NCBI RefSeq assembly: GCF_000027125.1
Contig: NC_017626.1
Strand: one strand, 5' to 3'
DNA: 64,000 nt
Origin: Escherichia coli 042
GTDB taxonomy: Bacteria > Pseudomonadota > Gammaproteobacteria > Enterobacterales > Enterobacteriaceae
Shown: positions 37,864 to 37,929 of the stretch, in pieces
Layout: each line of letters opens with the position of its first letter
Position numbering within the stretch: the first letter of the stretch is position 1
Notes under the pieces: generated by a model
Database searches by the model: none
What the model saw: only the letters and a program-made list of their open reading frames with translations
What the model was told of the DNA's origin: nothing
Made by a program: the position numbers and the translations under genes

Positions 37864-37878
37864 TGGTGTCAGGGCACC

Positions 37879-37910
37879 AAAAAAAACCGCCGAACATGTC
37901 GGCGGCTTTC
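37879..37910 (-). terminator. bidirectional rho-independent terminator (end of the nuo operon, and of yfbM)
   Basis: Stem CCGCCGA / TCGGCGG flanked by an A8 run on the plus strand, which reads as a U8 tract on the nuo strand; located between the yfbM stop and the nuoN stop. Confidence 0.75.
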
Positions 37911-37929
37911 TGACTTACAAACTGACAGC

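Follow-up and report, generated by a model that had tools for sequence, protein, structure and literature searches.

Anatomy of the yfbM–nuoN junction

How did the terminator of the nuoA-N operon come to lie directly against yfbM in the 64,000-nt stretch of Escherichia coli 042 DNA analyzed here (the window), when E. coli K-12 carries three additional genes at the same place? The window corresponds to the E. coli glpQ-to-pta region and is 99.4% identical to strain Ecol_316 across all 64 kb. The ORF list, together with the junction sequences and BLAST break points, gave the following features around the junction.

37360-37863, + strand: yfbM, 167 aa, DUF1877 protein; stop codon TGA at 37861-37863 (ORF list)
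37864-37929: spacer between the convergent genes yfbM and nuoN, exactly 66 bp
37864-37881: 18 bp of the compact allele, TGGTGTCAGGGCACCAAA; K-12 has a 2563-bp yfbN-yfbO-yfbP block instead (junction sequences and BLAST break points)
37875-37886: CACC plus A8 tract, the A8 itself at 37879-37886; source of the U-tract on the nuoN strand
37887-37905: predicted terminator hairpin, 7-bp stem CCGCCGA (37887-37893)/TCGGCGG (37899-37905) and 5-nt loop ACATG
37906-37929: 24 nt from the hairpin to the nuoN stop codon; strain-variable, the + strand starting with the weak tail CTTTCT
37930-39387, - strand: nuoN, 485 aa; stop-codon complement at 37930-37932 (ORF list)

YfbM matched the Pfam family DUF1877 (E = 1e-35) and, at equal length, PDB entry 1RYL, described as "hypothetical protein yfbM" (E = 1e-107); the gene is also annotated as yfbM in the near-identical Ecol_316 record. 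According to the annotation of that record, nuoN is the last gene of the nuoA-N operon and encodes NADH:quinone oxidoreductase subunit N. The hairpin at 37887-37905, which was also scored as an inverted repeat, lies 24 nt from the nuoN stop codon and 23 nt from that of yfbM. The 18-bp segment at 37864-37881 is also found in E. whittamii and in other genomes with the compact junction, in which yfbM and nuoN are contiguous. The coordinates and the folding described below thus agree with the first-pass annotation of this DNA, which had placed a 66-bp spacer with one terminator hairpin between the two genes.

The hairpin is a predicted intrinsic terminator of nuoA-N

Folding of a 43-nt core yielded -18.6 kcal/mol on the nuoN (-) strand (z = -4.65), with none of 200 shuffled sequences scoring as well, and -12.9 kcal/mol on the yfbM (+) strand (z = -3.3). 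The element has the hallmarks of an intrinsic terminator: a stable GC-rich stem-loop, with six G-C pairs in a 7-bp stem and a 5-nt loop; a U-tract on the nuoN strand, where the stem is followed by U8 (the complement of 37879-37886); and a position just downstream of the final gene of nuoA-N. The stem was identical across all E. coli, E. whittamii, E. fergusonii, and Superficieibacter-like loci examined, while the flanks vary: the A-tract ranges from A6 to A10 among strains, and the loop and the 24 nt toward nuoN are likewise variable. The constancy of the stem amid these varying flanks adds support to the hairpin energies and z-scores, which argue for a real structure.

The two strands differ in what follows the stem, a U8 tail on the - strand versus CUUUCU, with four U in six positions, on the + strand. 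Taken with the folding energies, these tails suggest a good terminator of nuoA-N and a weaker one for yfbM. We therefore predict that the 66-bp spacer is the intrinsic terminator of nuoA-N, strong for nuoN and presumably active in vivo, and that for yfbM the hairpin can at best serve as a weaker stop. The earlier label "bidirectional terminator" is borne out only by half, as the nuoN strand has U8 and the yfbM strand offers only CUUUCU. Like bidirectional terminators between convergent genes, the element combines a GC-rich hairpin with an A-tract opposite a T-rich side, lies 23-24 nt from both stop codons, and has a conserved stem; the asymmetry between its two tails sets it apart from them. 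Alleles more symmetric than that of the window occur at locus L015, in E. fergusonii, and in the cryptic Escherichia sp. E2748, where the hairpin has a shorter loop and a T-run on either side.

A pattern-based terminator scan did not report the hairpin at 37887-37905, a miss that likely reflects its stem-extension rule using up the T-run and is not evidence against the hairpin. Rfam gave three matches on the spacer, all far below their gathering scores (15.6-18.9 bits versus 34-80). Folding also suggested an outer stem, TGTCAG/CTGACA (37867-37872 with 37921-37926), which we rejected as a chance pairing that is broken in other E. coli and in the L009 lineage; E. whittamii has one apparent compensatory change in this outer stem. 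Separately, we noted that the Superficieibacter-like locus (L026 5671-6000) has a 330-bp nuoN–yfbN spacer containing two CCGCCG-type terminator hairpins with a REP-like GC-rich palindrome between them.

The corresponding region in K-12

As the first-pass annotation had stated, the MG1655 annotation places yfbN (-), yfbO (+), and yfbP (+) between yfbM and nuoN in K-12. Here, 2563 bp of K-12 sequence (L001 4439-7001, G+C 0.40), which also hold the remnant of an SMI1/KNR4-like gene, stand in place of window positions 37864-37881; in either sequence, the hairpin is found with nuoN. The K-12 order yfbL-yfbM-yfbN-yfbO-yfbP-nuoN matches the window in its flanking genes, in how these are oriented, and in the hairpin near nuoN, whereas the loop differs by one base and the A-tract is A5 in K-12 versus A8 in the window. 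Alignment of the locus to K-12 thus revealed no contiguous yfbM-terminator-nuoN arrangement in that strain. Because K-12 has the yfbN/yfbO/yfbP block at this junction, the window comes from a non-K-12 background, as had been proposed; the difference amounts to 2563 bp versus 18 bp.

The two sides of the junction differ in their similarity to K-12. The yfbK-yfbM flank of the window is 93.6% identical to K-12 and nuoN-nuoH is 98.4% identical; over the longer elaD-yfbM flank, identity is 86-96%, compared with 97-99% for the surrounding core. Window positions 33300-37863 (elaD, yfbK, yfbL, and yfbM) are low in G+C (0.35-0.48 versus 0.52 for the whole window). Gene content between rbn and nuoN also varies, with no elaD at L005, no yfbK at L015, and a cheV-like gene in place of elaD in E. 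fergusonii.

Structural differences from K-12 within window positions 1-45,500 numbered three: the yfbM–nuoN junction, positions 1-804, and positions 11065-12811. The latter two match the supporting remarks of the first-pass annotation, which had pointed to a different 5' edge and to an insertion sequence (IS) at the rhm locus. Positions 1-804 have no K-12 counterpart upstream of glpQ and are annotated in Ecol_316 as a frameshifted hypothetical protein. Positions 11065-12811 carry an IS200/IS605-family tnpB/insQ and a truncated tnpA in place of K-12 rhmD-rhmR, a configuration common to 189 of 5426 complete genomes, many of them at 100% identity.

The compact junction is the majority state in E. 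coli

We assessed allele frequencies in 5426 complete E. coli genomes. In 4309 of them (79%), yfbM and nuoN are contiguous; this count includes 101 genomes in which the same IS200 copy lies inside the A-tract, at the equivalent of 37879-37886. Any match to the K-12 block was found in 1015 of the 5426 genomes, with at least 99% identity in 985, 80-90% in 24, and 60-80% in 3. Approximately 27 genomes have other, deeply diverged versions of the module, comprising the SMI1/KNR4-like gene, yfbN, and sometimes yfbO and yfbP, and the 5' part of the SMI1/KNR4-like gene was present in 14. By subtraction, about 100 genomes (2%) fall outside both the compact class and that of the K-12 block.

The window therefore represents the majority state and K-12 the minority. 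The claim that this position is strain-variable is well founded, with compact, K-12-type, diverged-module, and IS-bearing states among the genomes. An assembly artefact as the source of the junction is excluded because thousands of complete genomes carry it. The yfbM–nuoN query had 6508 matching places, one of them on a plasmid record. The junction is usable as a strain marker that tells K-12-like genomes, ~18% of the complete ones, apart from all others. Its significance is otherwise small: the feature is ordinary strain variation, an intrinsic terminator at a common deletion-type allele, and is not new in kind.

Nested states and protein families of the yfbN-yfbO-yfbP module

The module, its diverged copies included, occupies this one site in nested states. 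K-12 has the SMI1/KNR4-like remnant with yfbN, yfbO, and yfbP; L005 has the remnant with yfbN and yfbO; L013 and L014 have a truncated SMI1/KNR4-like gene with yfbN and yfbO; and L015 has a full 191-aa SMI1/KNR4-like gene with yfbN only. Within Escherichia, the module haplotypes are 77-91% identical to one another, compared with 92-99% for the adjacent yfbM, and at least five of them are deeply diverged. Their G+C content is 0.37-0.40, versus 0.52 for the window. Many copies are decaying, with truncated smi1, IS insertions, and IS-mediated deletions.

SMI1/KNR4 (SUKH) proteins are often the immunity proteins of polymorphic toxin systems. The module gene beside yfbM shares their annotation, as RefSeq assigns it to the SMI1/KNR4 family, and their N-terminal motif region. 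It differs from SUKH systems in that its Pfam score falls below the cut-off (PF09346, 19.4 bits, E = 0.0016, cut-off 25.4), there is no adjacent toxin gene, and the gene is absent from the window. PADLOC gave no match for YfbM, YfbN, YfbO, YfbP, or the SMI1-like protein, and NCBIfam returned nothing useful. The only Pfam match of YfbN was to the UBA-like family PF14555, with 21.4 bits for the K-12 protein (cut-off 21.8) and 21.8 bits for the L005 homologue, and YfbP had only TPR hits below their cut-offs. In BLASTP comparisons, YfbP and YfbO showed no significant similarity to the SMI1-like protein. The YfbN family comprises 19 clusters, named only from Escherichia and Superficieibacter.

A preprint names yfbN, and by linkage yfbO, as genes that block a retron toxin in an over-expression screen (doi 10.1101/2020.06.22.160242). 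We treat this report, whose subject is DNA missing from the window, as a lead and not as a finding. If the anti-toxin effect holds, this fast-evolving and often lost module would be worth studying.

The module is syntenic in outgroups

In E. fergusonii, which we take to be a different species because its rbn is only 76% identical to that of the window, the order is yfbM, an SMI1-like gene, yfbN, and nuoN, so that YfbN adjoins the nuoN terminator. The cryptic Escherichia sp. E2748 has the order yfbM, yfbN, yfbO, a gene for a 409-aa protein, and nuoN. A Superficieibacter-like scaffold, whose nuoLMN is 86% identical to that of the window, has the order yfbK, yfbL, yfbP, yfbN, and nuoN; its YfbP and YfbN share 61 and 47% amino acid identity, respectively, with the K-12 proteins over their full length. 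The synteny in E. fergusonii and in the Superficieibacter-like genome indicates that yfbN and yfbP occupied the interval before E. coli diversified. The module is therefore old, and a deletion that later spread widely is the most probable origin of the compact junction.

E. whittamii shares the compact junction, end points included, and so does one further diverged Escherichia representative. The genome scan behind these comparisons, run with a single protein on species representatives, recovered four Escherichia loci only, one of which ends 14 bp past yfbM and another 1.1 kb downstream. Its presence in these representatives makes the compact junction likewise old, and at some level of the tree it, and not the module-bearing state, could have come first.

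Sequence at the break points

We compared the sequences that flank the module with the single hybrid seen in the compact allele. Immediately after the yfbM stop codon, L008, L015, and E. fergusonii, three of the four module states that keep this stretch, read ...AGCACAAT, extended ...TCAGCTGGTAGCACAAT..., and L013/L014 have a diverged version, ...GCAGCAGAAT, extended ...GGCAGCAGAAT... On the other side, of the six module states examined, five have ACCAT and an A-tract ahead of the hairpin, and three of these (L015, E. fergusonii, and E2748) read CACCAT. The Superficieibacter-like genome has GACCAT, A7, and the hairpin. On its yfbP side, the K-12-type block has CTTTTTCAG and not CACCAT ahead of the A5 tract.

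The compact allele joins the two sides as ...AGCAC|CAT(A)... in E. whittamii and ...GGCAC|CAA... in the window, and the only flanking repeat is the 6-bp imperfect pair CACAAT/CACCAT. These sequences suggest that CAC is the microhomology at which a deletion was joined. The homology on the left flank between compact and module alleles spans 11-15 nt, too short for statistics, and for that reason we infer this junction rather than assert it.

Insertions at the junction

The first-pass annotation had called the position an insertion hotspot. Two different IS elements have indeed entered the 66-bp spacer. One is the IS200 copy in the A-tract described above. The other is ISEcB1 (IS3 family), which lies in the hairpin loop of one genome, E. 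coli O15_8X (L022 2526-4036), where it is flanked by a CATG target duplication and splits the stem. The IS-affected examples that we opened came from the unclassified remainder or from genomes with a partial K-12 block, and every one proved to be an IS event; the others were an ISEc22 inside yfbM, an IS5-mediated deletion, and an IS1-mediated deletion.

Escherichia sp. E2748 (L028 3088-4317) has an AT-rich gene for a predicted 409-aa membrane protein in the yfbP slot, directly against the terminator. This protein had no Pfam match, a chance-level match only in PADLOC (LmuC, E = 0.028), and no significant similarity to YfbP by BLASTP. The slot against the terminator thus holds yfbP in K-12, an unrelated 409-aa gene in E2748, and nothing at L005 and L013. 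Within E. coli itself, the cargo comprises nested forms of a single module together with IS200 and ISEcB1, the ~100 genomes (2%) noted above lying outside both main classes.

No tRNA gene lies in window positions 30000-46000, that is, within 8 kb of the junction. None of the annotated versions of the interval (K-12, L005, L013, L014, and L015) contains an integrase, and a search for att-like repeats found none, leaving no sign of site-specific machinery. Judged from gene order, the outgroups do not show an ancestral empty site either: yfbN lies by the nuoN terminator in E. fergusonii, and yfbP and yfbN share the Superficieibacter-like interval. The junction resembles E. coli integration hotspots in being a fixed point between core genes, with variable DNA of low G+C and different genes in one slot by lineage. 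It differs from the genomic and defence-island hotspots of this species in lacking an integrase, a tRNA gene, and att sites, and in holding essentially one decaying gene set and IS elements. A literature search found no paper linking yfbM or nuoN to a hotspot. Gaps between convergent genes generally tolerate insertions and deletions at little cost. The hotspot label thus fits in part, as the spacer and the slot against the terminator have taken IS200, ISEcB1, yfbP, and the unrelated gene of one cryptic-clade strain, but a hotspot that gave K-12 its additional genes is not supported.

Loss or gain of the module

Synteny of the module in outgroups makes it probable that the empty site is the derived one. 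We consider it likely, though well short of certain, that the nuoA-N terminator abuts yfbM through the absence of an old module, and that the history is one of a deletion that spread to become the major allele. The ancestral arrangement would have had an SMI1/KNR4-like gene and yfbN, joined in some lineages by yfbO and yfbP, between yfbM and the terminator. A deletion would have run from about 11 nt past the yfbM stop codon to the CACCAT before the A-tract, with its ends joined at the CAC microhomology, and the resulting allele would have become the major one in E. coli through descent and homologous recombination of the conserved flanks. Module-bearing alleles, that of K-12 included, would survive as a minority, either persisting or re-imported by flank recombination, and would be decaying by nested deletions. 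Recombination of the flanks is in line with the reduced identity to K-12 of elaD-yfbM (86-96%) relative to the core (97-99%). Loss is the more likely direction of change, given the compact majority, the outgroup synteny, haplotypes that are only 77-91% identical, and the lack of an integrase, a tRNA gene, or an att site. The "extra" genes of K-12 are then more likely survivors than newcomers, and calling them extra reflects reference bias. Against a loss, the low G+C of the module is the usual mark of horizontally acquired DNA, and the YfbN family is tiny, so that transfer of the block between Escherichia and Superficieibacter is possible.

The reading of the first-pass annotation runs in the opposite direction: the ancestral site would have been empty and compact, yfbN, yfbO, and yfbP would have been inserted later in K-12 and its relatives, and the spot by the nuo terminator would be a hotspot that takes up foreign DNA again and again. 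The compact allele is the majority and occurs in E. whittamii, as a gain would have it, and 985 genomes share the K-12 block with an identity of at least 99%, a pattern that one recent spread would leave. The low G+C of the block points the same way, as do the independent insertions within 66 bp (IS200 in the A-tract of 101 genomes and ISEcB1 in the loop) and the lineage-specific contents of the slot (yfbP, the 409-aa gene, or nothing). We nevertheless regard a gain as unlikely: yfbN is found at this very position in E. fergusonii, another genus has both yfbN and yfbP in the interval, and the module haplotypes differ by 9-23%, far more than their flanks. Moreover, the non-IS states in E. coli are nested forms of one gene set and not unrelated cargoes, the interval offers no integrase, tRNA gene, or att site, and no paper found in the literature search names the site a hotspot. 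The claim that K-12 received its additional genes at a hotspot is thus not borne out, considering the 79% compact majority, the module synteny in outgroups, and the missing integrase, tRNA, and att site. It is also conceivable that neither allele is simply derived, and that a presence/absence polymorphism has long been kept across Escherichia by selection, for instance for an immunity-like or anti-toxin function, and moved by flank recombination. Neither state is confined to a single Escherichia species, deep divergence separates at least five of the haplotypes, and the elaD-yfbM flank of the window is less similar to that of K-12 than the core is (86-96% versus 97-99%); one module member is annotated as SMI1/KNR4, and the preprint cited above reported yfbN and yfbO as retron-toxin blockers on over-expression. 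The SMI1/KNR4 match, however, lies below the curated Pfam cut-off (19.4 versus 25.4 bits), no module member fits a PADLOC defence model, and the visible decay of many copies suggests neutral loss over maintenance. We therefore find such long-term maintenance quite improbable, and give equally little credence to its more specific form, in which the module is an old, fast-evolving polymorphism retained for the immunity or anti-toxin activity of its small proteins. If that form were true, the compact junction would mark strains that gave up protection.

Other repeats in the window

Two further repeats were noted outside the junction. At the 3' end of rpnE, a 91-bp direct repeat (8522-8612 and 8765-8855) has copies that are 94.5% identical; rpnE measures 960 bp in the Ecol_316 annotation (L003) and 900 bp in K-12. 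The other repeat, at 37300-37360, is inverted and 16 nt long (TTTTATTTTCCCTCGT / ACGGAGGAAAATAAAA); its pairing takes in the Shine-Dalgarno sequence and the start codon of yfbM (-21.4 kcal/mol, z = -3.5 by folding), and yfbM translation may be under its control.
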